This document shows, piece after piece, positions 164 through 36,738 of a DNA stretch of 64,000 nt (position 1 is its first letter; the number at the start of each line of letters is the position of its first letter). The stretch covers positions 374,170,001 to 374,234,000 of the forward strand of contig OZ024740.1 of NCBI GenBank assembly GCA_964016885.1, written 5' to 3'. A program made the position numbers and the translations under genes. The DNA is from Eledone cirrhosa (taxonomy: Eukaryota). The notes below the pieces were generated by a model. It was not told where the DNA came from, searched no databases, and saw only the letters and a program-made list of their open reading frames with translations.

Positions 164-2260
164 ATGGCTACCAAAAAGAAATGTCATACGTCACTCCCAC
201 TCATTCCGTCTTCTTCTTCCTCAATCATCACTACAGGAGAGAGAAGATTGTCTCTCTCCCTCCCTTCTTTAAATGTGTCTCTCTCCCTCCCTTCTCTTTC
301 GCAAGCGACGAAAGAAAAGAAAAGTCTCGTGCAAAGCGTGCAAGGTTTCTCCACGACGACGACGACAGCGACGAAACAGGTGTGCGGGAAATACGAAAAC
401 CCAGTTCATTCGTCTGACGTCAGGAATAATAGCAGTAGCAGCCGTAATAACAACAGCAACAGTGACAATGAAAACAACAGTAGCAGCCGCAACAGCATCA
501 CCAGCAGCATAAACAACAACAGCATTAGCAGCAGCAACACCAACAACAACCACAGCAACAGCGGCGGAGGCAGTAGTCGTAGTACCTGCAGCAACAACAA
601 AAGTACCAGCAGCTCTGACGACAACAACAACAGCAGAGAAAAACCAATCTCATTTGCAGGTATTGCGAAAAACCTGGAAACAATCCTCATAACAAATGAG
701 GAATTAGAGGAAGCGAAGAAGATGGTGACAAAGAACGGACACCGAGCAATCTGCAAGGCAGCGAAAAATTTTTTCGAAACCCAAGAGCACTGTACGGTCA
801 CGTACCGTACAGTAAGTACAAAATCCCGTAGGGTGGAAAGAGCCACAGAGGCCCAAATACAAAAAGCCTTGGGGTCTGTGTGGCAGAGGAAAACGCACAT
901 CACCCGAGGCAAAAAATACGCCACCGTAGACGTACTTTTTGCCACACCCCAGGAGGCAAAGGCCCAATCAGTAGTGACCCTAAGGAGCGAGGAAATGGTG
1001 TTGGTGCCCTCCTACTGCGGGCAAAAAATTGTGAGGGTCAAACTGACCCACGTCCCCCCCGGAATGACCCCTTCTTGGCTGGCCGCGTCTGTCCTCGTCG
1101 GAATCGAGGACAAAACAACTGTACTGCAAGTACAGAAAAAAGTAAGAGAAGATTGGGTCGGCTCCTCCATTGAGATGCTAATCCAAACCAACCAGGAGTG
1201 CATCGAAGCTATCCCGGATGTGATAGACTTCGATAACGGCACTCAACTGCCCATAAGTGTTGAGGGCAAACGCCCGAAATGCTTTCGCTGTGGATCGAAG
1301 ACTCACCTCAGGGCCTTCTGCAACGAGAAGACCCTGAGAAAGGAGAAAACCCCCCTCCTCCCGAATCCGGTTCCACGGCTACCAGCAACAGGACAAGCGG
1401 CAACCAGGAACGATAGGTCCGTGGCACCCATACCCACTCCACGGAAATCAAAGACAGCAGCAGCAGTGGAAATATTAACAACAACAACAGCAATACCAAA
1501 TGCAGCTGCAACAGAGACTCCAGTGCAAACATCACCAACAACAACAAGTGAAAGAGTGGAGCTGGTACCCCTCCCCGACCTTACAGAATCAGACATGGAG
1601 TGTGAGGTGGGAGAGGGATGGCAAAAGGTCTCAAGAAGGCACAAACGCAGAAGCAGCGCATCGTCGCCTTTGAAAAGGGAGGAAAGAAATGAGAAAAGGG
1701 TAAAGTCTACTGCAAAGAGACCCACAGCAGCAACACCACCAACACCATCACCACCCACACCAGCACCACCATCACCACCGGCGACAACCCCACCGCCAAC
1801 AACACCTTCAACACCACCACCACAAGCACCAACATCGCAAACACAACAACAAAACACACACACCCAGCAACAACGACAAGAAAATAGCAGAACCACACCC
1901 CACCCCCAGAAAAACAAATGCACGGCAATAAACACACACAACAAGAAACTAATGACTTACATAATTGAACACACAGACATTTCACAACAGGACTACATAA
2001 TACCAGCACCAATCAAAACGCCAACTAACATAAGACTGCTAAAAATAGCACAGAAACAATACACAAACATTAAAACGAAATTCCCCAACGCAGTTGGTGA
2101 TTTCAGGGACCTAGGAGGAACCATTAATCGAAGAGTATATTCAGACATTCTCTTAGAAGAGCCGACGACCAGCCGAAGGGACGATTCAACGGTCCCTTCA
2201 CCAGACGATCAAGTGAAAAGGGATGTAAAAACCATCCCTCCTCTACCAAAAATACGGTAA
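164..2260 (+). CDS. Tx1-type ORF1 nucleic-acid-binding protein (type A)
   Basis: First ATG at 164 within ORF 131..2260; CX2CX4HX4C knuckle CFRCGSKTHLRAFC; N/S- and P/T-rich low-complexity flanks. Confidence 0.88.
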   Translation: MATKKKCHTSLPLIPSSSSSIITTGERRLSLSLPSLNVSLSLPSLSQATKEKKSLVQSVQGFSTTTTTATKQVCGKYENPVHSSDVRNNSSSSRNNNSNSDNENNSSSRNSITSSINNNSISSSNTNNNHSNSGGGSSRSTCSNNKSTSSSDDNNNSREKPISFAGIAKNLETILITNEELEEAKKMVTKNGHRAICKAAKNFFETQEHCTVTYRTVSTKSRRVERATEAQIQKALGSVWQRKTHITRGKKYATVDVLFATPQEAKAQSVVTLRSEEMVLVPSYCGQKIVRVKLTHVPPGMTPSWLAASVLVGIEDKTTVLQVQKKVREDWVGSSIEMLIQTNQECIEAIPDVIDFDNGTQLPISVEGKRPKCFRCGSKTHLRAFCNEKTLRKEKTPLLPNPVPRLPATGQAATRNDRSVAPIPTPRKSKTAAAVEILTTTTAIPNAAATETPVQTSPTTTSERVELVPLPDLTESDMECEVGEGWQKVSRRHKRRSSASSPLKREERNEKRVKSTAKRPTAATPPTPSPPTPAPPSPPATTPPPTTPSTPPPQAPTSQTQQQNTHTQQQRQENSRTTPHPQKNKCTAINTHNKKLMTYIIEHTDISQQDYIIPAPIKTPTNIRLLKIAQKQYTNIKTKFPNAVGDFRDLGGTINRRVYSDILLEEPTTSRRDDSTVPSPDDQVKRDVKTIPPLPKIR

Positions 2261-2295
2261 GTGGTCTTTCCCATCTTTTCCACTCTATTTTAAAC

Positions 2296-5200
2296 ATGAC
2301 CTCACTCAGAATAGGCAGCATAAATGCGCGTGGCTTGGGGTCGTCATGGAAGCAGGGTCACCTGCTCAACGACCTCAGGTCACTAAACATAGATGTAGTG
2401 GCCATCAGCGAGACCAGAATCTCCGAAGCACGGGCCTTCGCACCGATCTTCGGCGGCTACGATGTGTACGCATCTCCCAGCCGTCCTGGATCCGGTGGAG
2501 GAGTTGCTGTACTTTTTCGGAGAGGTTTGGATCTCGCCATACGGGCCATCTTCCTGGACCCAGAGGGTAAGCTGGTGGTGCTGGACGTGACCAGCGGAGA
2601 CGGGCAAGCTTTCAGGCTAGTGGCCGTCTATGCCCCGACAGGAGCAGGGCGGCCTGATTTCTTCCGGCGTCTGGAGACCTTTCTTGGAACGTCCCGCTCT
2701 TTAGTGTTAGTGGGCGACTGGAACGGGATCTTAGATGCACGCTGGGACTGTGTGGGATTAGCGGATAGGGGTGGAGGGTGCAAGAGCCTCACCAACCTGC
2801 TCAGGCGTTTTGAACTGTCTGACAGGTACCGATTGGATTTCCCGAATGTGCCAATGTGGACTTGGACAAACCGCATAGGGTCATCCAGATCATATCTAGA
2901 TAGAGTATTTTGTAGGGAAATAGATAGGTCTAGCATAGGCTGTCCACAATTCAAGATAGTCAGCTACACGGACCACAAATTCGTGATCTGTGTGCTTGAC
3001 TTAGATAGGCTTCATAGACGAGGACCCGGCTACTGGAAGCTAAACGCGTCCTTACCAGCGCGCAAGGCCTACAGAGACCGGATTAGCGAACTAGTTAAGC
3101 GGGCGTTGACGGGGGCCATCGTCAACAACAAGTGGTGGTTTGCTCTGAAAAGAGCGATTAGAATAGAATCGATTAGGTTTAGTAAGGCTTTAGCAATAGA
3201 GAAAAATAGAGCAGAGGGAGAACTAGTTAGAAAATTAGACGAGGCGCTTAGCAAAGGCATTGCGACCGACGTGCTTGCGGCGAAATTGGCCCTTGACCAA
3301 TTCTTCAATGCAAAGCACGAAGGCTGCGTTGTCAGAGCTAGGGTGCGTGCTCTCAGACACGAGGGGACGAAAGCCGTTCAATGGGCCCGAGTGGCGGAGG
3401 CGCGTCGTGGCAACAAAGCCACGATCCGGTCTTTGGTGGACCACGACGGGCGCATGCTACTCGATCCCGGGCAAATGTGTGAAGCTTTTCAGCGACACTT
3501 CGCTCAGCTGTTCGGGGGAAGCGGGGGGCCGGGTAGAGGGATGGACTTTAGTGTCTACCTCGACGGGCTGCCGCGGCTCTCGGCCACTGAGGCGAGGTGT
3601 TGCGAAAAGCCGATAACAGCCGCTGAAGTACGGGAGGCAATGACTGGCTGCACAAGGGGTAAATCGCCTGGTTTGGATGGTCTGCCCTATGAACTTTACG
3701 TACAGATGCCAGACTTGTTCGGAGGCCTCTTGGCGGACGTCTACTGCAACTGGCAACAGAACGGGAGAATTCCCAGTTCTGTGAGCCGAGGAGCGGTGGC
3801 ACTGCTGAGAAAGGATCCGAACAAGGGGGATAACATAGACAATTTCCGGCCCATAACTCTGCTAAACACAGAGTTTAAGATTTTGGCCAAGGTGCTAGCA
3901 AAGAGGTTGGCGCTTGTCGTTGGTGGTCTGGTGGGAGAGGCGCAGACATGCGCCATTCCCGACAGATCCATCCACGACAACCTCCACCTCATGCGATACA
4001 TCGTAGAGAGGGTAGCTAGGGAACCTGGCACGGGTGGGTCCTTGATCAATTTAGATCAGTCGAAAGCTTTCGATAGGGTCGACCATCGTTACCTAGCGGC
4101 AGTCCTGAGGGCGGCTGGCTTTGGGCCCGTCTTCAGAGGCTGGATCGCTGCCATGCACAGCGACATCTGCTCTGTGGTGAGAGTGAACGGTCACCTGTCG
4201 GAACCGTTCAACATCATGCGCTCGGTCCGCCAAGGATGTCCCCTCTCGTCCCTCTTGTACGTATTGACTCTCGAGCCATTACTGCACAAACTGGAGACGT
4301 TGAGGGGAGTCCCGCGCGAACTAGGATGCGGAAGATCCGTGTCAGCATATGCGGACGATGTCACCGTAGTGGTGTCGAACGCCAAACACATCGAGGCGAT
4401 CGGCACTACACTAAGAGAATACGAAGCGGTGACAGGAGCAATGATCAACCAGGAAAAGTCAGTGGGCCTGCAGCTCGGCACCTGGAGAGGCAGGTCCATG
4501 CCGTCCAACAGCGTCGTCGGACGCTGGACGGACGGACCGGTTAAATTGCTAGGGGTCTGGTTCGGTCCGGACCTCCAGACGGACAAAAACTGGGACGAGG
4601 TGACGAGCAGGGTGGCTTCTCTCACCCAGAAATGGGCCGAGAGGAAGCTATCCCTGAAAGGTCGAGCGGAGGTGGCTAACGCGTACATCGCGTCCGTCAT
4701 CTGCTACCGCCTGACCGTCGTACCTTGTCCTAAGCCTCGCCTGACTGTGCTGGAGCGTTTGCTCTTTCGCTTTTTGTGGAAGGGACGCGCTCCGATGGTC
4801 AGGCGGTCCATCTGTTGTCAACACCCGCTACGTGGAGGGCTGGGCATGCCGTGGCTGATGATGCGCAGGCACGCGCTCAGGCTACGACATCTCCACCTCT
4901 TCCTCGACGGTGATCAGGTGTGGTCGCCGTTTGCTAGACGCGTGTTTCCCCAGCTCGTTTCATTGACGGAGCTGCAGTCCTGGGTCAAGCGAAGACCGAG
5001 AGGGAGCGCCTGGAGACTGGAATGTCTTCAGGCGCTCACAGCCCTCGACCAATCGGGCAATGTGATCGGTGGAAACTCCACCTCGGCGTTCTATAGAGGA
5101 TTAGTGGAGGGGAAGAGCGACGACGTACTTGGGGAAACTCTAGGCGTCGACGAAAATCAACTAGCCAATCTCTTCGGAAGAACTTTCGGGCCAGGGCCTA

Positions 5201-5715
5201 TGGACAACTTCCAGAAATCTCTGGCCTGGCAGTGCTACCGAGGAGCCTTGCCAGTTCGGGATAAACTCTACAGGCATGGAGGTGCCGTCAGTCGGGCATG
5301 TCCGAGATGCGCGCAGGGCGACGAAACCGTCCTGCACGCACTCGTCCAGTGTCCGAAAATAGCTGACTTGTGGGTTTATGTCGAACACCTGCTGTCGCGT
5401 TTAGGACGGATCCGGCTATCATCTGAGTCCATCGTGAGGATTGCCCCGCCCTCCTCCTTTAGCCGGGAAGGGCAGGCAGTTTTTATCTGCCTGGTGGCCA
5501 TGGCGAAAGAGATAGTATGGTGGACACGTTTGAAAGGGCTGAAGACGAGCACTTACCTCTTCGGTGATGCTCTGATTGACTTTTTCAAATTTCATTTGAA
5601 AAGGAAAATCAGAGTAGAGAAGGAAGTGCTCTCTTCCCAGCATTTTGTTGAAAGATGGGTGAGAGAAGCAAGAATGGCCCGAGTGAATGGGCCGACTCTG
5701 AGTATATATCTGTAA
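2296..5715 (+). CDS. ORF2: apurinic-like endonuclease + reverse transcriptase + C-terminal zinc finger (1139 aa)
   Basis: APE motifs SINARG, ISET, VYAP, GDWN, LDR, TDH; GYWKLN; RT motifs KSPGLDG, FRPITLLN, DQSKAFD, VRQGCPLS, YADD; CPRC..ETVLH..C finger. Confidence 0.96.
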   Translation: MTSLRIGSINARGLGSSWKQGHLLNDLRSLNIDVVAISETRISEARAFAPIFGGYDVYASPSRPGSGGGVAVLFRRGLDLAIRAIFLDPEGKLVVLDVTSGDGQAFRLVAVYAPTGAGRPDFFRRLETFLGTSRSLVLVGDWNGILDARWDCVGLADRGGGCKSLTNLLRRFELSDRYRLDFPNVPMWTWTNRIGSSRSYLDRVFCREIDRSSIGCPQFKIVSYTDHKFVICVLDLDRLHRRGPGYWKLNASLPARKAYRDRISELVKRALTGAIVNNKWWFALKRAIRIESIRFSKALAIEKNRAEGELVRKLDEALSKGIATDVLAAKLALDQFFNAKHEGCVVRARVRALRHEGTKAVQWARVAEARRGNKATIRSLVDHDGRMLLDPGQMCEAFQRHFAQLFGGSGGPGRGMDFSVYLDGLPRLSATEARCCEKPITAAEVREAMTGCTRGKSPGLDGLPYELYVQMPDLFGGLLADVYCNWQQNGRIPSSVSRGAVALLRKDPNKGDNIDNFRPITLLNTEFKILAKVLAKRLALVVGGLVGEAQTCAIPDRSIHDNLHLMRYIVERVAREPGTGGSLINLDQSKAFDRVDHRYLAAVLRAAGFGPVFRGWIAAMHSDICSVVRVNGHLSEPFNIMRSVRQGCPLSSLLYVLTLEPLLHKLETLRGVPRELGCGRSVSAYADDVTVVVSNAKHIEAIGTTLREYEAVTGAMINQEKSVGLQLGTWRGRSMPSNSVVGRWTDGPVKLLGVWFGPDLQTDKNWDEVTSRVASLTQKWAERKLSLKGRAEVANAYIASVICYRLTVVPCPKPRLTVLERLLFRFLWKGRAPMVRRSICCQHPLRGGLGMPWLMMRRHALRLRHLHLFLDGDQVWSPFARRVFPQLVSLTELQSWVKRRPRGSAWRLECLQALTALDQSGNVIGGNSTSAFYRGLVEGKSDDVLGETLGVDENQLANLFGRTFGPGPMDNFQKSLAWQCYRGALPVRDKLYRHGGAVSRACPRCAQGDETVLHALVQCPKIADLWVYVEHLLSRLGRIRLSSESIVRIAPPSSFSREGQAVFICLVAMAKEIVWWTRLKGLKTSTYLFGDALIDFFKFHLKRKIRVEKEVLSSQHFVERWVREARMARVNGPTLSIYL

Positions 5716-5974
5716 ACTAAAGGTGGAAAACTGGGAGAGGGCACTTGCCTTGGTGGTCAGGGTCATTGTGGCTTTTTACTGGGCTTTCTCCACAAATGTC
5801 CCTCCGAAGTCCCCCCCTATTGGGGAATTTTTCATTGTTATTTTCATTGTTATTTTTGTTACATCCTCTGTTTTTGTTTTTTTACACGCAGAAATGCCCA
5901 TTTGTACCGTCCTGCATTGTCCTGCACTGTCCTTAATGTCTACTTTATGTAAACCCTTGTGGTTAATAAAGAAA

Positions 5975-5976
<2 letters not shown>

Positions 5977-6021
<45 letters not shown>
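5977..6021 (+). repeat. (ATT)n tail/target microsatellite
   Basis: Perfect ATT repeat joining the 3' end of one Tx1 to the 5' end of the next. Confidence 0.97.
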
Positions 6022-6230: not shown

Positions 6231-8214
6231 ATGGCTAATTACCCTCTGCACGAAGCAGCTGAAAGCCTTTCTCACAAAATAACACCTCACACCGACACCA
6301 CCATTGTAAATGTTACTACGTTTGCCAACACAAAAAAAAATATAAGCAGTAGCAATATTTTAAATTTGTCTCAGGCAGACATTCATTTCCCGCCATTACC
6401 AATGACTGCAGGTGTTAAACCCGCCACCACCACCACCACCGAGACAACCACCACCACCACCACCACCACCGCGACAACAGAAACAAAAGAAGAAAAAAAT
6501 AAATTAACTCGTGACGTCGAAATGAAATCAAGCAAAATGGACTCTTCCCCACCAAAGACGACTGACGTCACCACCACAACTGAAAATAAAATTAATATCA
6601 ACGATAGCAACAACAACAACAATGACATTATAAAACCGACCCTCAGTTTCGCCATCGTAGCAAAACAATTCGAAGCGTTCACGGTAACTCAAGAAGATTT
6701 AGAAAATGCCAAACAAATGGTAAAGAAAGATGGGTACAGGGTCAGCCTCACCCCCCCACCTAATAAAATGGAGCATCGGCGCCTGTGCACCGTGTCGTAT
6801 AGAACAATAAATGTAAAATCGCGCCGAGTGGAACGGGCATCCGAGTCCCAAATCCAAAAAGCTTTGGGACATGTGTGGGCAAGAAAAACCCACATCAGAC
6901 GTGGGCAAAAGTATGGAACCGTGGATGTGTTCTTTGAAACACCAGAGGAGGCTAGAGAACACTCCATGGCCCCATTAAAAAGTGACGACCTCACACTCGT
7001 CCCAAGCTATTGTGGCCAGAGACTCGTAAAGATCAGGGTGACCCACGTTCCACCGGCCATCGAAATTCCCTGGCTAATAGCGGCTGTCCTCACCGGCATC
7101 GAAGCCAACACGAAAATAATAGCAGTAGCAAAAGAAAAGCAGGAAAACTGGTCCGGATCTGGGATGGAGCTCCTGATCCAAGCGGACCAAAAAAGCATTG
7201 AGGAGATCCCAGAGGTAATAGACCTCACTGACGGCAGCCACCTCACGGTAATTGTCGAGGGCAGAAGACCTAGGTGTGTCGTTTGTGGTGAAGGAACCCA
7301 CCTAAGGGCTTTCTGCCCTCAGGCTAAAAGGTTGAGGCCACCTCTCCTACCCACCCCAGTGACAAAACCATCAACACCACCAGTACCAGAGATGGCAGCA
7401 ACAACTGTAGCAGCAACAACAGAAGCAACTATAACAGCAACAACCCCAGCAACAGTAGCAAAACCAACACCACTACCACCACCAGCAAAACCAACACCAC
7501 CACCACCCAACGCTTCAGAACTAGCACCAGCGCCTACACCATCCACCACGCCACAACCAAAACTAACGCCTGTGGAGGATTTTCCACTCCCCGGCCTATC
7601 ACAATTGGAGACAGATTGTGACGACGAGGAGTGGGAAACGATATCCGGAAAAAAAAAAGAAACCAAAAAAGAAAAAATTCTCTTCCTTCCCCCTCCAAAA
7701 ACAAAATACAGAGGGAAACAAAAAACTAAGAAACAAAAAAGTTAGGACAGATATGCCACCATCCACACCAGCATCACCAACCCCATCAACCCAAACACCA
7801 ACACCATCACCATCATTAACTCCAACACCACCATCACCTACACCACAAAAGTCACCAAAATGCGAAACAGAAACAAACCCACAACAAACGCAAACAAAAC
7901 AAAACAACCAAAACGATACACACTACACAGCATTAAATTTGAACAACAAGCAATTATTACACTACATCCAACACAACACCAGCATCACAGAAAAAGACTA
8001 CACAACAACCCCAAAATTCACACCACCTCCACACATACAAATCACTCGCATCACACAGAAAACGTACATGACACTAAAACAAAAATTCCCCAAAGACATC
8101 GGAGACTTCCGACAAGCACTCTCCAGGAGGATTTATAAGGACATCCTTCCTGAGGAGGCCACAAGCAGTGAAAAGGATGGAAAAGCCGTCCTTCCCCTAC
8201 GAGAAGTAAGGTAA
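6231..8214 (+). pseudogene. ORF1 type B, split by a frameshift in an A-run near 7650
   Basis: ORFs 6231..7745 (knuckle CVVCGEGTHLRAFC) and 7618..8214 (homologous to the type A C-terminus, RRIYKDIL). Confidence 0.85.
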
Positions 8215-8248
8215 GTGGTCTTTACCATCTTTTCCACTCCTTTTCAAC

Positions 8249-11200
8249 ATGACCTCACTCAGAATAGGCAGCATAAATGCGCGTGGCTTGGGGTCGTCAT
8301 GGAAGCAGGGCCACCTGCTCAACGACCTCAGGTCACTAAACATAGATGTAGTGGCCATCAGCGAGACCAGAATCTCCGAAGCACAGGCTTTCGCACCGAT
8401 CTTCGGCGGCTACGATGTGTACGCATCTCCCAGCCGTCCGGGATCGGGGGGAGGAGTTGCTGTGCTTTTTCGGAGAGGTTTGGATCTTGCCATACGGGCC
8501 ATCTTCCTGGACCCAGAAGGTAAGTTGGTGGTGCTGGACGTGACCAGCGGAGACGGGCAAGATTTCAGGTTAGTGGTCGTCTATGCCCCGACAGGAGCAG
8601 GGCGGCCTGATTTCTTCCGGCGTCTGGAGACCTTTCTTGGAACGTCCCGCTCTTTAGTGTTAGTGGGCGACTGGAACGGGATCTTAGATGCACGCTGGGA
8701 TTGTGTGGGATTAGTGGATAGGGAAGGAGGGTGCAAGAGTCTCACCAACCTGCTCAGACGTTTTGAACTGTCTGACAGGTACCGAATGGATTTCCCGAAT
8801 GTACCAATGTGGACTTGGACAAATCGCATAGGGTCATCCAGATCATATCTAGATAGAGTATGTTGTAGGGAAATAGATAGGTGTAGCATAGGCTGTCCAC
8901 AATTCAAGATAGTCAACTACACGGACCACAAATTCGTGATCTGTGTGCTTGACATAGATAGGCTTCATAGACGAGGACCCGGCTACTGGAAGTTAAACGC
9001 GTCTTTACCAGCGCGCAAGGCCTACAGAGACCGGATTAAGGAACTAGTTAAGCGGGCGTTGACGGGGGCCATCGTCAACAACAAGTGGTGGTTTGCTCTG
9101 AAAAGAGCAATTAGAATAGAGTCCATTAGGTTTAGTAAGACTTTAGCAATAGAGAAAAATAGAGCAGAGGGACAATTAGTTAGAAAATTAGATGAGGCGC
9201 TTAGCAAAGGCATCGCGACCGACGTGCTTGCGGCGAAATTGGCCCTTGACCAATTCTTCAATGCAAAGCACGAAGGCTGCGTTGTCAGAGCTAGGGTGCG
9301 TGCTCTTAGACACGAGGGGACGAAAGCCGTTCAATTGTCGCGAGTGGCGGAGGCGCGTCGTGGCAACAAAGCCACGATCCGGTCTTTGGTGGACCACGAC
9401 GGGCGCATGCTACTCGATCCCGGGCAAATGTGTGAAGCTTTTCAGCGACACTTCGCTCAACTGTTCGGGGGCAGTGGCGGGCCGGATCGAGGGATGGACT
9501 TTAGTGTCTACCTCGACGGACTGCCGCGGCTTTCGGCCACTGACGCGGAGTGTTGCGAAAAGCCGATAACAACCGCTGAAGTACGGGATGCAATGACTAG
9601 TTGCACAAGGGGTAAATCGCCTGGTTTGGATGGTCTGCCCTATGAACTTTACGTACAAATGCCAAACTTGTTCGGAGGCCTCTTGGCGGACGTATACTGC
9701 AACTGGCAACAGAACGAGAGAATTCCCAGCTCTGTGAGCCGAGGAGCGGTGGCGCTGCTGAGAAAGGATCCGAACAAGGGGGATAACATAGATAATTTTA
9801 GGCCCATAACTCTGCTAAACACAGAGTTCAAGATTTTGGCCAAGGTGCTAGCAAAGAGGTTGGTGCTTGTCGTTGGTGGTCTGGTGGGAGAGGCACAGAC
9901 ATGCGCCATTCCCGACAGATCCATCCACGACAACCTCCACCTCATGCGATACATCGTAGAGAGGGTAGCTAGGGAACCTGGCACGGGTGGGTCTTTGATC
10001 AATTTAGATCAGTCGAAAGCCTTCGATAGGGTCGACCATCGTTACCTAACGGCAGTCCTGAGGGCGGCTGGCTTTGGGCCCGTCTTCAGAGGCTGGATCG
10101 CTGCCATGCACAGCGACATCTGCTCTGTAGTGAGAGTGAACGGTCACCTTTCGGAACCGTTCAACATCATGCGCTGGGTCCGCCAAGGATGTCCCCTCTC
10201 GTCCCTATTGTACGTATTGACTCTCGAGCCATTACTGAACAAACTGGAGACGTTGAGGGGGGTCCCGCGCGAACTAGGATGCGGAAGATCCGTGTCAGCA
10301 TATGCCGACGATGTCACCGTAGTGTGTGTCGAACGCCAAACACATCGAGGCGATCGGCACTACACTAAGAGAATACGAAGCGGTGACAGGAGCAATGATC
10401 AACCAGGAAAAGTCAGTGGGCCTGCAGCTCGGCACCTGGAGAGGCAGGTCCATGCCGTCCAACAGCGTAGTCGGGCGCTGGACGGACGGACCGGTTAAAT
10501 TGCTAGGGGTCTGGTTCGGTCCAGACCTCCAGACGGACAAAAACTGGGACGAGGTGACGAGCAGGGTGGCTTCTCTCACCCAGAAATGGGCCGAGAGGAA
10601 GCTATCCCTGAAAGGTCGATGGAGGTGGCGAATGCGTACATCGCATCCGTCATCTACTACCGCCTGACCGTCGTACCTTGTCCTAAGCCCCGCCTGACTG
10701 CGCTGGAGCGTTTGCTCTTTCGCTTCTTGTGGAAGGGACGCGCTCCGATGGTCAGGCGGTCCATCTGCTGTCAACACCCGCTACGTGGAGGGCTGGGCAT
10801 GCCGTGGCTGATGAAGCGCAGACACGCGCTCAGGCTACGACATCTCCACCTCTTCCTCGACGGTGATCAGGTGTGGTCGCCGTTTGCAAGACACGTTTTT
10901 CCCCAGCTCGTCTCCTTGACGGAGCTGCAGTCCTGGGTCAAGCGAAGACCGAGAGGGAGCGCTTGGAGACTGGAATGTCTTCAGGCGCTCACAGCCCTCG
11001 ACCAATCGGGCAATGTGATCGGTGGAAACTCCACCTTGGCGTTCTATAGGGGATTAGTGGAGGGGAAGAGCGACGACGTACTTGGAGAAACTCTAGGCGT
11101 CGACGAAAATCAACTAGCCAATCTCTTCGGAAGGACTTTCGGGCCAGGGCCTATGGACAACTTCCAGAAATCCCTGGCCTGGCAGTGCTACCGAGGAGCT

Positions 11201-11668
11201 TTGCCAGTTCGGGATAAACTCTACAGGCATGGAGGTGCCGTCAGCCGGGCATGTCCGAGATGCGCGCAGGGCGACGAAACCGTCCTGCACGCACTCGTCC
11301 AGTGTCCGAGCATTGCTGACTTGTGGGTTTATGTCGAACACCTGCTGTCACGTGTAGGACGGATCCAGCTATCAGCTGAGTCCATCGTGAGGATTGCCCC
11401 GCCCTCTTCCTTTAGCCTGGAACGGCAGGCAGTTGTTATCTGTCTGGTGGCCATGGCGAAAGAGATAGTATGGTGGACACGTTTGAAAGGGCTGAAGACG
11501 AGCACTTACCTCTTCGGTGATGCCCTGATTAACTTTTTCAAATTTCATTTGAAAAGGAAAATCAGGGTAGAGAGGGAAGTGCTCTCTTCCCAGCATTTTG
11601 TTGAAAGATGGGTGGGAGAAGCAAGTATGGCCCGAATGAATGGGCCTTCTCTGAGTATGTGTCTGTAA
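8249..11668 (+). pseudogene. ORF2 APE-RT with two frameshifts (~10325, ~10620)
   Basis: Fragments 8249..10498, 10326..10667 and 10586..11668 tile the 1139-aa protein. Confidence 0.92.
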
Positions 11669-11965: not shown

Positions 11966-14900
11966 GGTTGGTGAAGCCACGCTTCTTATCGCCTCCAGTC
12001 TTTTCCAACGTTTTACCTATTTTTCAACCGTTCTAAACCTTTTATTCAAGTTTTAAATTTGTAAAAGTATAGAAGAAGTGACCCACCTAATACAGGGGTT
12101 CACTAGTAAATAATACGGCACTTCTTTACGGGGTGTCGTATTCGTATTTGTGTAAAAATATTTTTTTGAAAAATGTCAACATGGATAACACAAAAAAGAG
12201 AGAGAGCGCCGTCAGACAACACAGAGAGAGCGAGACTTTATCAGCATGTCAACAAGACAGCGTTCCAGCGGAGGTAAATATAAACGAAAATATTACAAAG
12301 GATAAAAAGATTGTTACAGATTTAAAATTAACAAATATTTCTAACACAAACTACACCAACAATAACTTCAACAACATCACCAACAACAACACCAAAAATA
12401 ACAGCGGTAGAGTCGAGAACGACAATAACAAAAATAACAGCGGTAAGGCCGAGAACGACAATAACAATAATAACAGCGGTAAGGTCGAGAACGACAATAA
12501 CAATGACAATAACAACAGCCACAACAACAATAATAGTAGGAACAATATCAACAAAAACAACAATAATAACAACAGCCACAATAACAGTAACAGCAGCAAC
12601 AGTATCAGCGAAAACAACACCAACAACTGTACCAGCGAAAAGAACAACAATGACACCGATACCTGTAATAGCGACCTCAGCACCACCAGTAAGACCAGTA
12701 GCGGCAGCAATAGTGGTGCTGCTGAAAAAGGGACCACTTCTTTTGCAGGTGTCGCCCGAAATATCGAGACAGTGTTAGTCACAGAGGAGGAGATGGCAGT
12801 CGCAAGGGCCATGGTGACAAGAAGCACAAATAGAGTTTCCCTGAAACCTCCACCCGATTTTTTCAAGGACCAGCAGCTACGAACGGGGATTTACCGCACC
12901 GTAAGCAAAATCTCACATCGAGTGGAGAGAGCCACGGAGGCTCAAATCCAAAAGGCCTTGGGTGCGTCTGGGCACGCTGAACCAACATCAACCGAGGCAG
13001 AAAGTTCGCCACAGTAGACGTACATTTCGCCACCCGCCCGGAAGCAAAGTCTCACACTTTGGAAACCCTAAAGAGTGAGGAGTTAGTCTTGGTGCCCTCC
13101 TACTGCGGGCAGAAAATTGTGAGGGTCAAAGTGACCCAGGTCCCACCCGACGTGCCCATACCTTGGCTGGCCGCATCTGTCTTTGCTGGAATTGAGAACA
13201 GGGCGACCATGCTGCAAGTAGAAACAATAGGGAGAGAGAACTGGTCAGGTATAGGCATGCAAATGCTTATATAAACTGACCAGGAATGTATCGAGGCTAT
13301 CCCCGATAACATAGACATCGAGGAAGGACTCCAACTCCCTATAAGTGTAGAAGGAAGACGGACAAAATGTTATCTCTGTGGGTCGAAAGGTCACCTCAGG
13401 GGCTTTGGCCCGCAGAAGACACCGAAGAGGGCCCCTCTCCTTCCAATACCTGGTCCGCTGCTACCAAGAGCAGGACAGGAAACAAACGAAGAAGCCCCTT
13501 CCACGGTGAGTAGGAGGGCAACGTCCGTAGCACCCGTACCAAGGCCATGATAACTAAAGCAGCATCATCAGTAGAAGCAACACCAATAGCTACATTTGAA
13601 ATAGCTACACCAGCAACTACATTGCCGAAGAGGGCTCCACTACCACCACCAACAGCCGTGGAGCACATACCCATCCCAGAAGCCACATAATCCAACATGG
13701 AGTTTGAGGCGGGAGTGACGTGGCAAACAGTCTGCCACAAAAATCATAAAAGAAAAAAACCCTTAGATTCACCCTCCAAAAGTGAAGGCATACAAAGAGG
13801 GGTAAAGGCAGCAAGGAAACTTGCAGCAACACCACCACAAACACCAACAACGCAAACACAACAAGACACACACACCAAACAGCAACAAGAAGAAAACGGC
13901 AACAAAATCACCTCTCCCCCTAAAAAGTACACAGCCATAAACATAGCAAAAAAAGAACTCATAAAATATATAAAGCAGCACACAGACATCACGGAAAAAA
14001 ACTAGTACACCCCACCAACACCAAGAACTCTCCCGACAAACATAAGCATCATCGAAATCTCAAATAGAACAATACAAACCTTTAAAACAAAAATACCCCA
14101 ACACAGTTGGAGACTTCAGGGGGACGGTTACCAAGAGGATATACACTGACATCCTCTTGGAAACACCCATGACCAGCGAAAGGGACGGTTCTACTGTCCT
14201 TTCACAACACGAACAAGGTGAGTGACCCTTTCTCATTTGCCCCGTTTCTCATCCAACACGGCTGTACTCAGAATAGGCATTATAAATGCATGTGACCTGG
14301 GGTCATCTTGGAAGCAGGGTCACCAGCTCAATGACCTCAGGTCACTAAACATAGATGTGGTGGCCATCGATGAAACCAGAATCTCCGAGGCACGGGCCTT
14401 CGCACCGATCTTCGGCGGCTACAAGTATACGCATCTCCCAGCCGTCCAGAATCGGGGGGAGGGGTTGTAGTCCTTTTTCGGAGAGGCTTGGTTCTCGCGA
14501 TACGGGCCATCTTCCTGGAGCCAGAAGGTAAGTCGGTGGTGCTGGACGTGATCGGCAGCGAAGGCAATGCTTTCAGGCTAGTAGCCGTCTACGCCCCAAG
14601 AGGGGCAGGACGGCCAGATTTCTTCAGACGTCTAGAGACCTTTCTTGGAACGTCCCGCTCTTTAGTGTTAATGGGCGACTGGAACGGTATCTTGGATGCA
14701 CGCTGGGATCGTGTGGGGCTAGTGGATAGGGGAGGAGGGTGCAAGTGCCTCACCAACCTGCTCAGACGTTTTGAACTGTCTGACGGGTATCGACTGGATC
14801 ACACGAATGTGCCAATGTGGACATGGACAAACAGCATCGGGTCATCAAGATTGTATCTAGATAGGGTATTCTGCAGGGAATTAGATAAGGCTTGTATAAG

Positions 14901-16026: not shown

Positions 16027-19000
16027 AAACAACAACAGCATTAGCAGCAGCAACACCAACAACAACCACAGCAACAGCGGCGGAGGCAGTAGTCGTAGTA
16101 CCTGCAGCAACAACAAAAGTAACAGCAGCTCTGACGACAACAACAACAACAGCAGCAAAGAAAAACCAATCTCATTTGCAGGTATTGCGAAAAACTTGGA
16201 AGCAATCCTCATAACAAAAGAGGAATTAGAGGAAGCGAAGAAGATGGTGACAAAGAATGGACACCGAGCAATCTGCAAGGCAGCGGAAAAAATCTTCGAA
16301 ACCCAACAGCACTGTACGGTCACGTACCGTAGAGTAAGTACACAATCCCGTAGGGTGGAAAGAGCCACAGAGACTTAAATACAAAAAGCCTTGGGGTCTG
16401 TGTGGCAGCGGAAGACGTACATCACCCAAGGCAAAAAATATGCCACCGTAGACGTGCTTTTTGCCACACCCCTGGAGGCAAAGGCGCAACCCGTAGTGAC
16501 CCTAAGGAGCGAGGAAATGGTGTTGGTGCCCTCCTACTGCGGGCAAAAAATTGTGAGGGTCAAACTGACCCACGCCCCCCCCCCCCCCCCCGGATGGCCT
16601 CTTCTTGTCTGGCCGCATCTGTCATCGTCGGAATCGAGGACAAAACAACTGTACTGCAAGTACAGAAAAAAGTAAGAGAAGATTGGGTCGGCACCTCCAT
16701 TGAGATGCTAATCCAAACCAACCAGGAGTGCATCGAAGCTATCCCGGATGTGATAGACTTCGATAACGGCACTCAACTGCCCATAAGGGTTGAGGGAAAA
16801 CGCCCGAAATGCTTTCGCTGTGGATCAAAGACTCACCTCAAGGCCTTCTGCAACGAGAAGACCCTGAGAAAGGAGAAAACACCCCTCCTTTCGAAACCGG
16901 CTCCACGGCTACCAGCAACAGGACAAGCGGCAACTAGGAACGATAGATCCATGGCACTCATACCCACGCCACGGAAATCAAAAACAGTAGCAGCAGTGGA
17001 AATATTAACAACAACAACAGCAATACCAAATGCAGCTGCAACAGAGACTCCAGTGCAAACATCACCAACAACAACAAGTGAAAGAGTGGAGCTGGTACCC
17101 CTCCCCGACCTCACAGAATCAGACATGGAGTGTGAGGTGGGAGAGGGATGGCAAAAGGTCGTAAGAAGGCACTAACGCAGAAGCAGGGCATCGTCGCCTT
17201 TGAAAAGGGAGGAAAGGAATGAGAAAAGGGTAAAGTCTACTGCAAAGAGACCCACAGCAGCAACACCACCAACACCATCACCACCCACACTAGCACCACC
17301 ATCACCACCGGCGACAACCCCACCGCCAACAACACCTTCAACACCACCACCACAAGCACCAATATCGCAAACACAACAACAAAACACACACACCTAGCAA
17401 CAACGACAAGAAAATAGTAGAACCACACCCCACCCCCTGAAAAACAAATGCACGGCAATAAATACACACAACAAGAAACTAATGACTTACGTAATTGAAC
17501 ACACAGACATTTCACAACACGACTACATAATACCAGCACCAATCAAAACGCCAACTAACATAAGACTGCTAAAAGTAGCACAGAAACAATACACAAACAT
17601 CAAAACGAAATTCCCCAACGCAGTTGGTGATTTCGGGGACATAGGAGGAACTATCAATCGAAGAGTATATTCAGACATTCTCATAGAAGAGCCGACGACC
17701 AGCCGAAGGGACGATTCAACGGTCCCTTCACCAGACGATCAAGTGAAAAGGGATGTAAAAACCATCCCTCCCCTACCAAAAGTACGGTAAATGGTCATTC
17801 CCATCTTTTCCACTCTATTTTAAACATGACCTCATAAATGCGCGTGGCTTGGGGTCGTCATGAAAGCAGGGTCACCTGCTCAACGACCTCAGGTCACTAA
17901 ACATAGATGTAGTGGCCATCAGCGAGACCAGAATGTCCGAAGCACGGTCCTTCGCACCGATCTTCGGCGGCTACGATGTGTACGCATCTCCCAGCCGTCC
18001 TGGATCGGGGGGAGGAGTTTCTGTGCTTTTTCGGAGAGGTTTGGATCTCGCCATACGTGCCATCTTCCTGGACCAAGAGGGTAAGCTGGTGGTGCTGGAC
18101 GTGACCTGCGGAGACGGCCAAGCTTTCAGGCTAGTGGCCCTCTATGCCCCGACAGGAGCAGGGCGGCCTGATTTCTTCCGGCATCTGGAGACCTTTCTTG
18201 GAACGTCCCGCTCTTTAGTGTTAGTGGGCTACTGGAACGGGATCTTAGATGCACGCTGGGACTGTGTGGGAGTAGCGGATAGGGGTGGTGGGTGCAAGAG
18301 CCTCACCAACCTGCTCAGGCGTTTTGAACTGTCTGACAGGTACCGATTAGATTTCCCGAATGTGCCAATGTGGACTTGGACAAATCGCATAGGGTCATCC
18401 AGATCATATCTAGATAGAGTAAATTGTAGGGAAATAGATAGGTCTAGCATAGGCTGTCCACAATTCAAGATAGTCAGCTACAAGGACCACAAATTCGTGA
18501 TCTGTGTGCTTGACTTAGATAGGCTTCATAGACGAGGACCCGGCTACTGGAAGCTAAACGCGTCCTTACCAGCGCGCAAGGCCTACAGAGACCGGATTAG
18601 CGAACTAGTTAAGCGGGCGTTGACGGGTGCCATCGTCAACAACAAGTGGTGGTTTGCTCTGAAAAGAGCGATTAGAATAGAATCCATTAGGTTTAGTAAT
18701 GCTTTAGCAATAGAGAAAAATAGAGCAGAGGGAGAACTAGTTAGAACATTAGACGAGGCGCTTAGCAAAGGCATGGCGACCGGCGTGCTTGCGGCGAAAT
18801 TGGCCTTTGACCAATTCTTCAATGCAAAGCACGAAGGCTGCGTTGTCAGAGCAAGGGTGCGTGCTCTCAGACACGAGGGGACGAGAGCCGTTCAATGGGC
18901 CCGAGTGGTGGAGGCGCGTCGTGGCAACAATGCCACGATCCGGCCTTTGGTGGACCACGACGGGCGCATGCTACTCGATCCCGGGCAAATGTGTGAAGCT

Positions 19001-21240: not shown

Positions 21241-24200
21241 CAGTTGCATTTATCTTGCTTTATGTTCATACGAGTTATCACCAAGTCACAACCAGTGACC
21301 TCAAGAGACAACAAGGTCCGCCATGTTCAAGAAAGAACATACATATTCACACATGGATCTTTAGTGTTTAGACTTGTGATGTACTTATATTGACAGAATC
21401 TTCCTTAGTATATGGGCAGTTCCCATTAGTACTATCTTTTGTATTTCTCCTATACGCGGGTTTTGCGATAAGTAATCATTAGCCCCCTTAGGTATCATTC
21501 CCAGAACGCCTACAACCACTGGTATTGTTTTAGTTCTCAATTTCCACATTTTTCCAAATTCTATCTCCAGGTCCTTATACTTGCTCAATTTTTAAAATCT
21601 TTCTATAGATACATTCTTGTCTATTGGAACAGACATATCAATTAGCAGGCATACCCTCTTTTGAAAGTATTTCAATATTATATCAGGTCTGTTTGCATCT
21701 ATTTTTCGGTCTGTTTGGATGCTAAAGTTCCACAAGATTGAGATGTGATCTTTTTCAAGTATGGGAGGTGGTTGATGAACCCACCAATTCTTTTGATGGG
21801 GCAGGTCAAAATGCTTACACATTATCCAATGTATGTATTGTGCAACTCTGTCATGCCTGTTTAGGTATTCTGTTGGAGCTATAGGACTGCACATTGAAAT
21901 TATATGGTCAATGATCTCTAGTTGTTTTTTGCATACACGGCATAATGGGCTGCACCCATTTTTTATTATGTTGGCTTGGTAATTTTTTGTTGGCAGACAC
22001 TGATCTTGTGCTGATATAATCAGTCCTTCAGTCTCCGATTTCAGTCCAGAGGATGCCAACCACTGATGGGTTAAAGTTTTGTCAACATCAGGATTGTTAG
22101 CTCGCTCTGGGTATTTTCCATACAGAGGCTCTTCTTGCCATTTCTTAGCCAGTTTCTGTAGCAGTTCTTTCTTTGCAGTTACTTTTACCTGCTTTGCTTT
22201 TTCTGTGTTTTCCATTTCAGCAGTAAATGGGACTTCTGAAATTTGTAGTCCATTACTGTATCTATATCTGCCTTAGTGTGATGCAGTCTGTGCATGGTTA
22301 AGAATTTTCGAATTTTTGTATCGAGCCTACGGATCTCTGTGATTGACCAGTTGATGACATTATAACTGTAGGTTACTACTGGTATGGCAAGCGTGTTTAT
22401 GGCATCGATCCTATTCCTTGCATTCAATTCCGTTCTTAAGATTGCTCTTACTCTGCGGTAACATTCCTTCCTTATCCTTTCCCTAATTGTCGAGTGCTTG
22501 ATTCCGTCTCCTTCACAAACACCTAGATATTTGTAAGTTTCCTCTTGATCATCTTCTCTTATCACATTCCTTCGATCAAGATTAATGTCTGAACTTTTCA
22601 GCAGCTTTCCTCTGGTGAACGTTGCTTTGGCGCATTTATCTAGTCCAAACTCCATTTTAATGTCATCACTGAACTGCTTCACAGTGGATAATAGCCCTTG
22701 CAATTGTTCATCATTTTTTGCAAATAGTTTCAGGTCATCCATGTAGAACAGGTGATTAATGGTTTTGTCATAGACTTTATATCCATGTTTTGTTTCATTG
22801 AGCATTTTTCTTAATGGTATAAGTGCGATGCAGAATAAAAGCGGAGATAAAGAGTCACCCTGAAAAATTCCACAATTAATATTAACTTCTCCAGCTTCCA
22901 GTGATTTTGTTTCACTATTCAAAAGGAGTGTCGTTTTCCATGTCTTCATACTGAATGACAAAAGTCTCCTGACAACGGGGGATATTTTGAAAATCTCTAA
23001 ACATTTTTCAATCCAACTGTGTGGCAAACTATCGAATGCTTTTTTTATAATCTATCCAAGCAATTGATAGATATTTGTGTCTATTATGACAATATTCCAG
23101 TATCATTTTGCTAACCAAAAGCTGATATTTACAGCCATATGAGACTCGTTTATACCCTTTCTGCTCAATGGGAAATAGGTCATTTGTTATCAGGTGGTCA
23201 TATGTATATTCAGTTAGGACAGATGTTAACATTTTATACATTGTGGTCAAGCAAGTTATCGGTCTGTACTTTTGGGGATTGTTTGTCTCATCATTCTTCG
23301 GAAGCAGGAATGTAATGCCGTTAACTAGCCATGAAGGTATCTTTTCTGGCTCCTTAACTATTTCATTGTAAAGTTGGGCTAACAGCTCATGAGACTCTAT
23401 GAAGGCATTTATCCAAAAGTTTTGTATGTTGTCTTTTCCTGGGGATTTCCATTTGCTCGTTTTTCTTAGAGCCAAGCGCAACTTCAACTGTTATATTTTC
23501 CCATCTTTGTTCCTCAAGGTGAGCTGTATCTTTCATTTGTCTGTCTATCCATGGGGCATGTATGTTATGAACTTTTTCTCCGGCCCAGATCTTTTCCCAG
23601 AATTCTTGCACTTCCTCCTTGGGTGGTATTGATTTAGCAGTTATTGTTGACTTACCAATTTTTCTGTAGAAGTTTCTTTGGTTGTTTTTGAACATATTAT
23701 TGTCCTTATAGAATCTAGATCATTTTTCAAAGCGCCTTATACGAGCAGCTTTGGCCGACACTTTTTGCTTGATTATTTCTATCAGCATGTCTATGTCACA
23801 TGTTGATTTTATACTGTACTTTTTTTTCAATTTTCTAAGTTTAGTTTGTTTAACATGTTCACCTACTTTATAGTTTGTTAAACTTTCTATGTCAGATCGG
23901 AGAAGGTTTATTTGGCGGTTGATGTTCTCTTGCCAAGTAGATTTCTTGTGGGAATTCCTTTGTTTTTTCATCTTCACTCCACATAAGTGAGTGGTGACTT
24001 TAGCCGATGCATAATAGAGATGATTTAAATCAGTAATGTTTAGTTTGTTTGTGATGATAATGTTTTTGAGAATTATGTTAGTCTTGTGTATTATCTTTTG
24101 GTTCTGTTTGGAGTTCTGGATCTTAGGGAGGGTGTCTCGTTGCCCCATGTCAGATTCTTTCATTTTCATCCATTCGATCATAATTTCATCCTTCAAGTTG

Positions 24201-25003
24201 GCAAGTTCATTCTCATTCATTTCCTTATCATTTACGATCTCATTATTTTCTTTTTGAGTTTCATCCTGAGCATGCCCACCCTCCACTTTTTCGATCCTTT
24301 CTTTGATTTGTTCTGTTGTCAGTGATTCCGCCCCAACCCTGGGATTCGAAGTGTTACAGTTTACCTCGTTTTCACTGATACATGTTTCATTTTCCCTTCG
24401 CTGACTTTGTGCTAATAGCTTGATCTGATCAATTTCTATATCAGTTAGTAACTTTTTTCTTACAATATTTCTTCGTATATTGGCTAGTTTGTTACTGTCA
24501 ATATAGCCTCTGTTTTCGGGATGTTTCTTTTTCCAGTTGATATATGTCTGTTCTGTATTCGATGTATTTGATGGGTAGTACATGGCAGTGTAGAAAGCCT
24601 CAAGGACTTCTTTATTATCTTCCCTTGACCATTTTTCTCTCTTTTTCTTTGGATTTCTTGGTGGTGAGCATGGAGGGCCAACAGTAGGAGTATTCCGGTT
24701 ATGGGACGTCTCCAGCTCCGAAGTGATGGGAAGGTTTGAACCATTAGCTGATTTTTCGACCCCAGTCTGGTTCCTCTCTGAGCGACGCGGCCCTTTTTCA
24801 CCCGGGTGACGGCCGATCCGGTATGAGATTTTATCATTAGACATTTACTTTATTTTTTCGCGTTTTATCCTTATCCGCCAAGGGGTAATCATTTCGTATT
24901 ACCACTTCTAGAACGAGTGTCAACCAAGACTAGAGGGGTCGTTCTCCCATAGAGACACGGCTATTCCCCGCCGGCCGCGATCCCGGTATTTCTTGGTCAC
25001 GGG
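21241..25003 (-). mobile_element. R4/Dong-like RLE non-LTR retrotransposon, family A, degenerate
   Basis: Single fragmented ORF with RT and C-terminal RLE; 3' end abuts (TAA)n on its sense strand. Confidence 0.88.
21385..24844 (-). pseudogene. RT + CCHC + restriction-like endonuclease ORF, disrupted
   Basis: WKSPGKD, YRPITCL, GIFQGDSLSP, YMDD, CRVC..IDHIISMC, RHD, NRPDI, LIDMSVP, KYKDL in successive ORF fragments. Confidence 0.9.

Positions 25004-25979: not shown

Positions 25980-26062
<83 letters not shown>
25980..26062 (+). repeat. (TTA)n microsatellite
   Basis: Seen directly. Confidence 0.97.
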
Positions 26063-29000
26063 GGCGACCTACGTAGTAAATCGTATCATCGTGAGCTCCG
26101 CATAGGGTTGTTATTTCCGTTTGTTAAAAATTGTCATTTATGGAAAATGTTATTGTTAACTGTTTATAAGCGCACATACATTGTTTTCCGAAAAGGACAC
26201 CCAAAAAGATTGGGGCCTTGTGCCCAAAATTTAAACTTTTATTATTATCAAAAAATTTCTTTGAAAAAAATGGCTAATTCACCTCTGCAACAAGCAGCTG
26301 AAAGCCTTCCTCACAAATTAACAGCTCACACCGACACCACCATTGTAAATGCTACTACGTTTGCCAACACAAAAACAAATATAAGCAGTAGCAATATTTT
26401 AAATTTTTCTCAGGCAGACATTCATTTCCCGCCATTACCAATGACTGCAGGTGTTAAAGCCTCCACCACCACGAGCACCGCGACAACCACCACCACCACC
26501 ACCACCGCGACAACAGAAACAAAAGAAGGAAAAAATGAATTAACTCGTGATGTCGAAATGAAATCAAGCAAAATGGACTCTTCCGCACCAACGACGACTG
26601 ACGTCACCACCACCACAACTGAAACTAAAATTAATATTAACACAAATAACGATAGCAACAACAACAACAATGACATTATAAAACCGACCCACAGTTTCGC
26701 CATAGTAACAAAACAGTTCGAAGCATTCACGGTAACTCAAGAGGATTTAGAAAATGCCAAACAAATGGTAAAGAAAGATGGGTACAGGGTCAGCCTCACC
26801 CCACCCCACACCTAATAAAATGGAGCCTCGGCGCCTATGCACCGTGTCGTATAGAACAATAAATGCAAAATCGCGCCGAGTGGAACGGGCATCCGAGTCC
26901 CAAATCCAAAAAGCTTTGGGACATGTGTGGGCAAGAAAAACCCACATCAGACGTGGGCAAAAGTATGGAACCGTGTATGTGTTCTTTGAAACACCAGAGG
27001 AGGCTAGAGAACACTCCATGGCCCCATTAAAAAGTGACGACTTCACACTCGTCCCAAGCTATTGTGGCCAGAGACTCGTAAAGATCAGGGTGACCCACGT
27101 TCCACCGGCCATCGAAATTCCCTGGCTAATAGCGGCTGTCCTCGTCGGCATCGAAGCCAACACGAAAATAATAGCAATAGCAAAAGAAAAGCATGAAAAC
27201 TGGTCCGGATCTGGGATGGAGCTCCTGATCCAAGCGGACCAAAAATGCATTGAGGAGATCCCAGAGGTAATAGACCTCACTGACGGCAGCCACCTCACGG
27301 TAATTGTCGAGGGCAGAAGACATAGGTGTGTCGTTTGTGGTGAAGGAACCCACCTAAGGGCTTTCTGCCCTCAGGCTAAAAGGTTGAGGCCACCTCTCCT
27401 ACCCACCCCAGTGACACAACCATCAACACCACCAGTAGCAGAGATGGCAGCAACAACTGTAGCAGCAACAACAGAAGCAACTATAACAGCAACAACCCCA
27501 GCAACAGTAGCAAAACCAACACCACTACCACCACCAGCAAAACCAACACCACCACCACCCAACGCTTCAGAACTAGCACCAGCGCCTACGCCATCCACCA
27601 CACCACAACCAAAACTAACGGCTGTGGAGGATTTTCCACTCCCCGGCCTATCACAACTGGAGACAGATTGTGACGACGAGGAGTGGGAAACGATATCCGA
27701 AAAAAAAAAAGAAACCAAAAAAGAAAAAATTCTCTTCCTTCCCCCTCCAAAAACAAAATACAGAGGGAAACAAAAAACTAAGAAACAAAAAAGTTAGGAC
27801 AGATATGCCACCATCCACACCAGCATCACCAACCCCATCAACCCAAACACCAACACCATCACCATCATTAACTCCAACACCACCATCACCTACACCACAA
27901 AAGTCACCAAAATGCGAAACAGAAACAAACCCACAACAAACGCAAACAAAACAAAACAACCAAAACGATACACACTACACAGCATTAAATTTGAACAACA
28001 AGCAATTATTACACTACATCCAACACAACACCAGCATCACAGAAAAAGACTACACAACAACCCCAAAATTCACACCACCTCCACACATACAAATCACTCG
28101 CATCACACAGAAAACGTACATGACACTAAAACAAAAATTCCCCAAAGACATCGGAGACTTCCGACAAGCACTCTCCAGGAGGATTTATAAGGACATCCTT
28201 CCTGAGGAGGCCACAAGCAGTGAAAAGGATGGAAAAACCGTCCTTCCCCTACGAGAAGTAAGGTAAGTGGTCTTTCCCATCTTTTCCACTCCTTTTCAAC
28301 ATGACCTCACTCAGAATAGGCAGCATAAATGCGCGTGGCTTGGGGTCGTCATGGATGCAGGGCCACCTGCTCAACGACCTCAGGTCACTAAACATAGATG
28401 TAGTGGCCATCAGCGAGACCAGAATCTCAGAAGCACAGGCTTTCTCACCGATCTTCGGCGGCTACGATGTGTAAGCATCTCCCAGCCGTCCGGGATCGGG
28501 GGGAGGAGTTGCTGTGCTTTTTCGGAGAGGTTTGGATCTTGCCATACGGGCCATCTTCCTGGACCCAGAAGGTAAGTTGGTGGTGCTGGACGTGACCAGC
28601 GGAGACGGGCAAGCTTTCAGGTTAGTGGCTTCCTATGCCCCGACAGGAGCAGGGCGGCCTGATTTCTTCCGGCGTCTGGAGACCTTTCTTGGAACGTCCC
28701 GCTCTTTAGTGTTAGTGGGCGACTGGAACGGGATCTTAGATGCACGCTGGGATTGTGTGGGATTAGTGGATAGGGAAGGAGGGTGCAAGAGTCTCACCAA
28801 CCTGCTCAGACATTTTGAACTGTCTGACAGGTACCGAATGGATTTCCCGAATGTACCAATGTGGACTTGGACAAATCGCATAGGGTCATCCAGATCATAT
28901 CTAGATAGAGTATTTTGTAGGGAAATAGATAGGTCTAGCATAGGCTGTCCACAATTCAAGATAGTCAGCTACACGGACCACAAATTCGTGATCTGTGTGC

Positions 29001-36736: not shown

Positions 36737-36738
<2 letters not shown>

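Follow-up and report, generated by a model that had tools for sequence, protein, structure and literature searches.

The window analyzed here is a 64,000-nt stretch of the Eledone cirrhosa genome (GCA_964016885.1, OZ024740.1:374,170,001-374,234,000, forward strand). It begins with a head-to-tail array of long interspersed nuclear elements (LINEs) of the L1 group, in which each element sits in the (ATT)n tail of the preceding one. The first element, type A, lies on the plus strand and contains two open reading frames (ORFs). ORF1 (164-2260) encodes 698 amino acids (aa) with a CCHC knuckle, read from the translation, and a low-complexity C-terminal half, and is without a match in a Pfam search. 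ORF2 (2296-5715, 1139 aa) encodes an APE endonuclease, a reverse transcriptase (RT) and a zf-RVT domain, with Pfam matches to Exo_endo_phos, RVT_1 and zf-RVT, and its best PDB match is human L1 ORF2p (E 5e-52); it is also the part of the element that is looped out by the predicted duplex and the putative optional intron described below. An AATAAA signal and (ATT)n tail follow at 5965-6021 (plus strand), with the next element beginning directly after. The separate ORF1, 3' untranslated region (UTR), poly(A) signal and simple-repeat tail are all features of the L1/Tx1 clade; the Tx1 label is given by resemblance, and no named Tx1 reference is among the relatives retrieved. Rfam gave no match in the window and no relative was found in viral contigs.

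In type A, the ORF1 stop codon TAA (2258-2260) lies within GTAAGT starting at 2257 and is thus covered by a U1-type 5' splice-site motif (2254-2262, plus strand, GT at 2257, phase 2), while a CTCAG in ORF2 codons 4-5 (2305-2309, plus strand) ends at 2309. A first-pass annotation of the window had read these two sites as the ends of a micro-intron whose removal yields an ORF1-ORF2 fusion of ~1830 aa. The letters are confirmed, and deletion of the 53-nt donor-to-CTCAG segment (2257-2309) does leave an open frame of 1832 aa. The corresponding plus-strand segments at 33017-33069 (second type A copy, 53 nt, ORF1 and ORF2 intact), 8211-8262 (type B, 52 nt) and 28263-28314 (second type B copy, 52 nt, 3'-truncated) were verified as well. 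Two plus-strand copies can be added to those previously noted: a family C junction (14218-14271, donor at 14218) whose phase-1 donor makes the join to CTCAG out of frame, and a decayed type A junction (17787-17833) with an altered donor +5 position and a deleted acceptor region. Across family C, the donor is in phase 1 in 30 of 30 loci and donor and CTCAG are both kept. The different relative frames of ORF1 and ORF2 in A and B, to which the first-pass annotation had pointed, are not independent evidence, because the extra base distinguishing 53 from 52 nt lies within the removed segment and leaves the phase of the join unaffected. A and B can moreover be aligned only from 2212 onward, at 95%, and A ORF1 resembles that of family C; type A is therefore a recombinant carrying a C-like ORF1 and the junction and ORF2 of B, and the four A/B copies in the window count as one junction. 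Stacking of several families head to tail within one another's (ATT)n tails extends over 1-21240 and 26015-36789 of the window. Copy L104 has a D spacer joined to an A-type 3' end.

Donor conservation and a predicted duplex around ORF2

A genome search with two degenerate patterns for the start motif of ORF2 returned 5,434 and 2,420 matches, against 7 and 6 for the controls. We examined 60 of the matched loci together with 40 longer stretches, from which 18 family representatives were retained in a table that favored copies with a recognizable donor and left out redundant copies, copies without a recognizable 3' end, L104, and five copies with a deleted or variant donor (L105, L262, L263, L266 and L268). 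ORF2 nucleotide identity between families is 62-96% (15 copies compared). A U1-type donor is found at the ORF1 end in 18 of the 18 representatives, and the motif also occurs, beyond what chance would give, in 29/30 loci of other families and 25/30 further loci, the misses being single decayed copies. Assigned from long open frames in 11 families and from ORF1-end homology in seven, the donor is in phase 2 in 11 families, phase 1 in six and phase 0 in one, with about four phase changes inferred on the family tree. Its retention across three phases and about four changes argues that the donor is not mere stop-codon context. Seven of eight donor positions are nearly invariant amid unalignable flanks, while ORF2 four-fold codons are invariant in only 15 of 98 cases. 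The variants observed (GTAAGT, GTAGGT, GTGAGT and CAG/GTAATT) are all compatible with U1 pairing. On a crude scale of U1 match, the ORF1-end donor is the top match among ~220 sense GT dinucleotides in 11 of 13 families. The conserved donor is thus real at the sequence level and independent of the stop-codon frame. It is also mostly lineage-specific, being weak or absent in 20 of 21 distant metagenome relatives (22-31% identity). One distant relative (L158:1880-2020, 25% identity) has a GTGAGT donor-like motif over its ORF1 stop without a duplex, which may be chance.

In all 18 families, the region from donor to ORF2 start has a predicted pairing partner in the ~45 nt that directly follow the ORF2 stop, with energies of -23 to -46 kcal/mol. 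In type A, the 5' strand of the predicted duplex consists of the donor and the pyrimidine-rich spacer (2256-2284) and the 3' strand lies just past the ORF2 stop (5722-5749), both on the plus strand; the predicted energy is -40.7 kcal/mol, and 26 bp are retained in the global minimum free energy structure of 3.8 kb. The partner strands lie after the ORF2 stop at 11666-11668 in the first type B copy and at ~36482-36509 in the second type A copy. The loop closed by the duplex is ORF2 almost exactly, start to stop. Cognate strand pairs have a mean energy of -34.0 kcal/mol versus -28.9 kcal/mol for non-cognate pairs, a value reached in 0 of 100,000 permutations, although this figure is too small given that the families are related and also recombine, so that p-values overstate their independence. 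In 17 of 18 families, the observed energy is matched by at most 10 of 200 composition-keeping shuffles. The donor is fully inside the helix in families A, B, C, C2, D3, J, L and M, and in J an A-to-G change at donor +4 is accompanied by a matching change on the opposite strand. Families G, H, I and K leave donor bases +2 to +4 unpaired, yet these bases are unchanged while the partner strand varies, and pairing alone consequently does not account for the donor. The duplex is absent in five of the five distant relatives that could be examined. In L267 (family O), the best predicted partner of the spacer (-49.9 kcal/mol) is located inside ORF2, ~2.9 kb before the stop. As a covarying feature of these sequences the helix is real, and we infer that it forms in cells.

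ORF2 as a putative optional intron

Our preferred explanation, which we advance tentatively, is that ORF2 is an optional or alternative intron bounded by two stop codons, or by the ORF1 stop and a UTR acceptor, with the duplex of ~3.4-kb range acting as a switch. Donor and duplex are more likely to control removal of the whole ORF2 than an ORF1-ORF2 fusion. U1 would bind the ORF1-end donor, which would be spliced to the ORF2 stop TAG in 15 families or, in the A/B/O lineage, to a 3' UTR CAG at 5891. The product would be an ORF1-only mRNA giving almost unchanged ORF1p in excess. Transcripts still unspliced on reaching the 3' UTR would have their donor masked by the duplex and be spared as full-length RNA, which would serve as transposition template and as the bicistronic message from which ORF2p is still made by reinitiation. 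Reinitiation fits family H, where the ORF1 stop overlaps a non-AUG start. In this family (L108 at G000:C1:11260500-11268500, minus strand; L085; L110), ORF1 (613 open codons) and ORF2 are intact, there is no ORF2 AUG, and the equivalent context has an ATA overlapping the TAG that ends ORF1, which suggests AUG-independent reinitiation.

The candidate distal acceptors differ between lineages. In 15 families ORF2 ends in TAG, often following a pyrimidine-rich stretch. Joining the donor to this TAG gives a stop within three codons in the donor's own phase in 10 of 15 families versus 5 of 30 for the other phases (Fisher p=0.002, label permutation p=0.013, with the independence of the related families overstated as above). 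In E, F and J the join would recreate the same Arg-stop, making ORF1p identical to that of the unspliced RNA. The three TAA-stop families (A/B/O) alone carry a top-scoring mid-UTR pyrimidine tract followed by CAG, located at 5861-5891 (plus strand) in type A, where the CAG at 5891 is tied as the top-scoring AG downstream of the donor. Joining to it would add ~19 aa to ORF1p in A and B, ending just before the poly(A) signal. The restriction of this tract to A/B/O represents one evolutionary event and is only suggestive. We rejected the UTR CAG as a universal acceptor, as it is confined to A/B/O and one recombinant copy, and likewise a membrane anchor that splicing would append from 3' UTR sequence, which occurs in K alone and is not conserved.

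Searches of the genome for spliced copies used patterns that each cover some of the joins, the long form of B and the phase-1 micro form of C falling outside them; intact-junction denominators were counted for A (1,515) and B (1,034), and other anchors were checked on fetched loci. A loose pattern gave 276 matches versus 174 for its control, with no spliced junction among the 100 matches listed. Further patterns gave 0 matches, and others returned two chance hits, one small deletion, three point mutants and one one-base donor insertion. The type A exon end followed by a base other than G occurs seven times, all point mutants, and the B pattern gave none. In contigs of six runs of unrecorded kind, no joint at 2256 was present among the 15 of 19 joints listed and a second comparison listed none; since contigs drop rare variants, this counts neither for nor against splicing.

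Several observations weigh against the optional-intron explanation. By the crude U1 score, the type A donor is only 6th of 219 and that of B 3rd. Of the seven type A copies with a changed +1 donor base (L091-L097), six have the same G-to-A change, and two of these sit in tandem next to intact copies; they are possibly a small sub-lineage that spread without the donor, which would speak against a strict need for it. Only 6 of 18 families have the cognate partner in first place (11 have it among the top three), only 11 of 18 have the best partner of the spacer within the element in the post-stop window, and global 3.8-kb folding retains the helix in three of five. On the acceptor side, G, I, K, L and N lack the phase-matched early stop and would gain 27-70 extra aa, stop-TAG scores are modest (7-14 on the crude scale) and partly forced by coding, and no single acceptor is conserved in all families. 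The 3' strand would lie in the exon in TAG families and in the intron in A/B/O. Pattern searches of the genome found no ORF1-plus-tail retrocopy in A, C, D2, G/I/K, H or J, an absence that carries less weight than that of fusion copies because such RNAs would need mobilization in trans.

The micro-intron fusion of the first-pass annotation, in which a 52-53-nt intron is removed, is not supported and is the least probable of the explanations considered. In its favor, A, B and O give an in-frame join, and some in-frame YAG (Y, pyrimidine) is present in eight of eight families of the A-D/O clade. Five of these eight carry both phase-1 and phase-2 YAGs, however, making such a fit near-automatic, and any in-frame YAG is found in only 8/18 families, all of this clade, and in none of the 10 E-N families. 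Conservation across related families extends to the donor but not to the acceptor and the fusing phase: the homologous site is an in-frame YAG in 3/18 families and the first YAG is in frame in 4/18. The acceptor AG falls in an Arg codon, and 16 of 33 conserved Arg columns have an invariant AG in any case; in family L the Arg codon is CGA, without AG. Family H, whose ORFs are intact, lacks both an AUG and any in-frame AG upstream of the endonuclease motif, the young family D2, also with intact ORFs, is out of frame at the acceptor site, and in G, I, J and K the distance from donor to site is only 39-42 nt; a search for a minimum intron length of the host gave no figure. What had been read as the pyrimidine tract of a 3' splice site forms the 5' strand of the predicted duplex. 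Precisely intron-less copies number 0 beside 2,549 intact A/B junctions, although a spliced fusion RNA would be expected to copy itself because it encodes ORF2p in cis. No fusion protein was found among annotated proteins of 1223-3490 aa searched with ORF1 residues 150-420, which is weak evidence. A conserved acceptor inside ORF2 was also discarded: the aligned AG columns sit in conserved codons with modest tracts, and the one at +122 was rejected as a functional fusion site because the join would delete the first endonuclease motif.

The main rival to the optional intron, which we consider somewhat unlikely, is that U1 binds with little or no splicing and either guards against premature cleavage and polyadenylation or retains the RNA in the nucleus until the 3' UTR has been transcribed and U1 is displaced by the duplex. 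A conserved donor lacking a universal acceptor would be explained in this way, as would the failure of pattern searches to find a spliced retrocopy of any kind. In 14 of 18 families, AATAAA/ATTAAA hexamers occur in the 1.4 kb upstream of the donor, and in the Arabidopsis element EVD U1 blocks premature termination (PMC5580714). ORF2, which lies directly downstream, is nevertheless without such a hexamer in 9 of 18 families, and U1 binding by itself leaves the phase-matched early stops and the mid-UTR CAG of the TAA-stop families unexplained. It is less probable again that the features serve translation or the ribonucleoprotein particle, with the duplex placing the ORF2 stop beside the ORF2 start to limit or direct reinitiation and the donor letters representing helix base and stop context. 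The near identity of loop and ORF2 speaks for such a role, the intact ORFs of family H with an AUA overlapping the ORF1 stop in place of an AUG fit reinitiation, and stop-start coupling in SART1 needs RNA structure, with looping suggested for L1 (PMC5972666). The donor letters, however, are more conserved than the partner strand, and they persist even when unpaired and, in phases 0 and 1, when they do not form the stop.

A lack of any function, with motif and complementarity left over from shared ancestry, inter-family recombination and base composition, appears improbable. All families do belong to one lineage in one genome, junctions and 3' ends have been exchanged by recombination, and among distant L1/Tx1 relatives the donor is weak or absent (20 of 21) and the duplex absent (all five testable). 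Mere inheritance is difficult to reconcile with nearly invariant donor positions between flanks that have diverged beyond alignment, at a divergence leaving 15 of 98 four-fold ORF2 codons unchanged, and with a spacer and 3' strand that change together.

Neighboring elements, known systems and significance

Other repeats are also present in the window. Single-ORF RT elements are present at 37439-40831 (minus strand; 1130 aa, RVT_1, (TTA)n flanks) and as fragments at 23720-24844 and 41329-43238. They possess a C-terminal zinc motif and a tail that looks like a restriction-like endonuclease, and they probably resemble the Dong/R4 type. An inverted repeat of 4.3 kb (94%; 45990-50258 and 52032-56226) surrounds an ORF at 48748-50232 (minus strand) that has RT-end and GIY-YIG-like motifs but no Pfam hit and is possibly Penelope-like. 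A 310-bp tandem repeat at 58638-60137 consists of ~5 copies that are 99-100% identical, with a flip in orientation at ~59400. Beyond Eledone, an Octopus sinensis 'tectonic-3-like' gene model (protein P0049) includes 61 residues of ORF2 endonuclease that are 64% identical (window 2383-2565). The ends of this piece lie near the conserved AG at +122 from the donor and near a second donor-like site (8520 in type B). The model is a possible case of an exonized ORF2 piece, its gene-model support being uncertain.

LINEs need far more ORF1p than ORF2p, an imbalance conventionally explained by inefficient reinitiation on a single unspliced RNA. ORF2 of L1 and SART1 is made by termination-reinitiation (PMC5972666), and the present elements resemble them in the short inter-ORF spacer and in the overlapping stop and non-AUG start of family H. 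The structure used by SART1 is local and downstream of the stop-start site, whereas the helix predicted here spans 3.4 kb and covers a splice donor. Human L1 also contains functional splice sites, and its spliced RNAs (SpIREs) can retrotranspose, with spliced copies making up ~2% of full-length L1 (PMC5860796). In that system the donors are located in the 5' UTR and splicing is a dead end (PMC5860796), while here the donor is at the ORF1 stop and conserved across families, and no spliced copy was found.

A parallel is offered by Ty1/copia elements, in which splicing yields a GAG-only RNA and donor quality outweighs acceptor quality (PMC5580714). EVD shGAG similarly relies on a U1-type donor, conserved and located close to where the structural-protein coding region ends, to produce a structural-protein-only mRNA, and the U1 site also protects the full-length RNA (PMC5580714). 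EVD differs in being a long terminal repeat (LTR) element with one ORF that uses a short intron and premature termination, as experimentally shown. The present element is a bicistronic LINE in which the putative intron would be all of ORF2 (3.4-3.6 kb) and is associated with a predicted long-range duplex, a proposal made from sequence. Lacking the combination of LTR and single gag-pol ORF, it is not a member of the EVD type, though it may work alike.

Tx1-clade elements, among them the microsatellite-targeting Kibi and Koshi, prefer multicopy sequences or microsatellites as targets (PMC4494074), and 13 recently active L1-Tx1 families are reported for Octopus vulgaris (PMC13282606). Like these microsatellite-targeting elements, the Eledone families have two ORFs, an ORF2 with APE endonuclease, RT and zinc-finger domains, and insertions in simple repeats; here (ATT)n or (TATC)n forms the tails and the apparent targets, as judged from the head-to-tail stacking of elements at such tails. 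The main text of PMC13282606 contains neither 'intron' nor 'splic'. A literature search that took in few subscription papers, with supplements and Repbase outside its scope, found no LINE for which either a conserved donor at the ORF1 end or a helix looping out ORF2 has been described.

If the optional-intron explanation is true, a selected donor gated by a helix would represent a second, retrovirus- or copia-like solution to the ORF1p:ORF2p ratio in a LINE. The host would gain a splicing handle on a very abundant, active family, whose near-identical A/B junctions number more than 2,500, along with strong donors dispersed over the genome. A covarying helix with ORF2 as its exact loop would, even if no splicing takes place, provide a structural lead on the translation of LINE ORF2.

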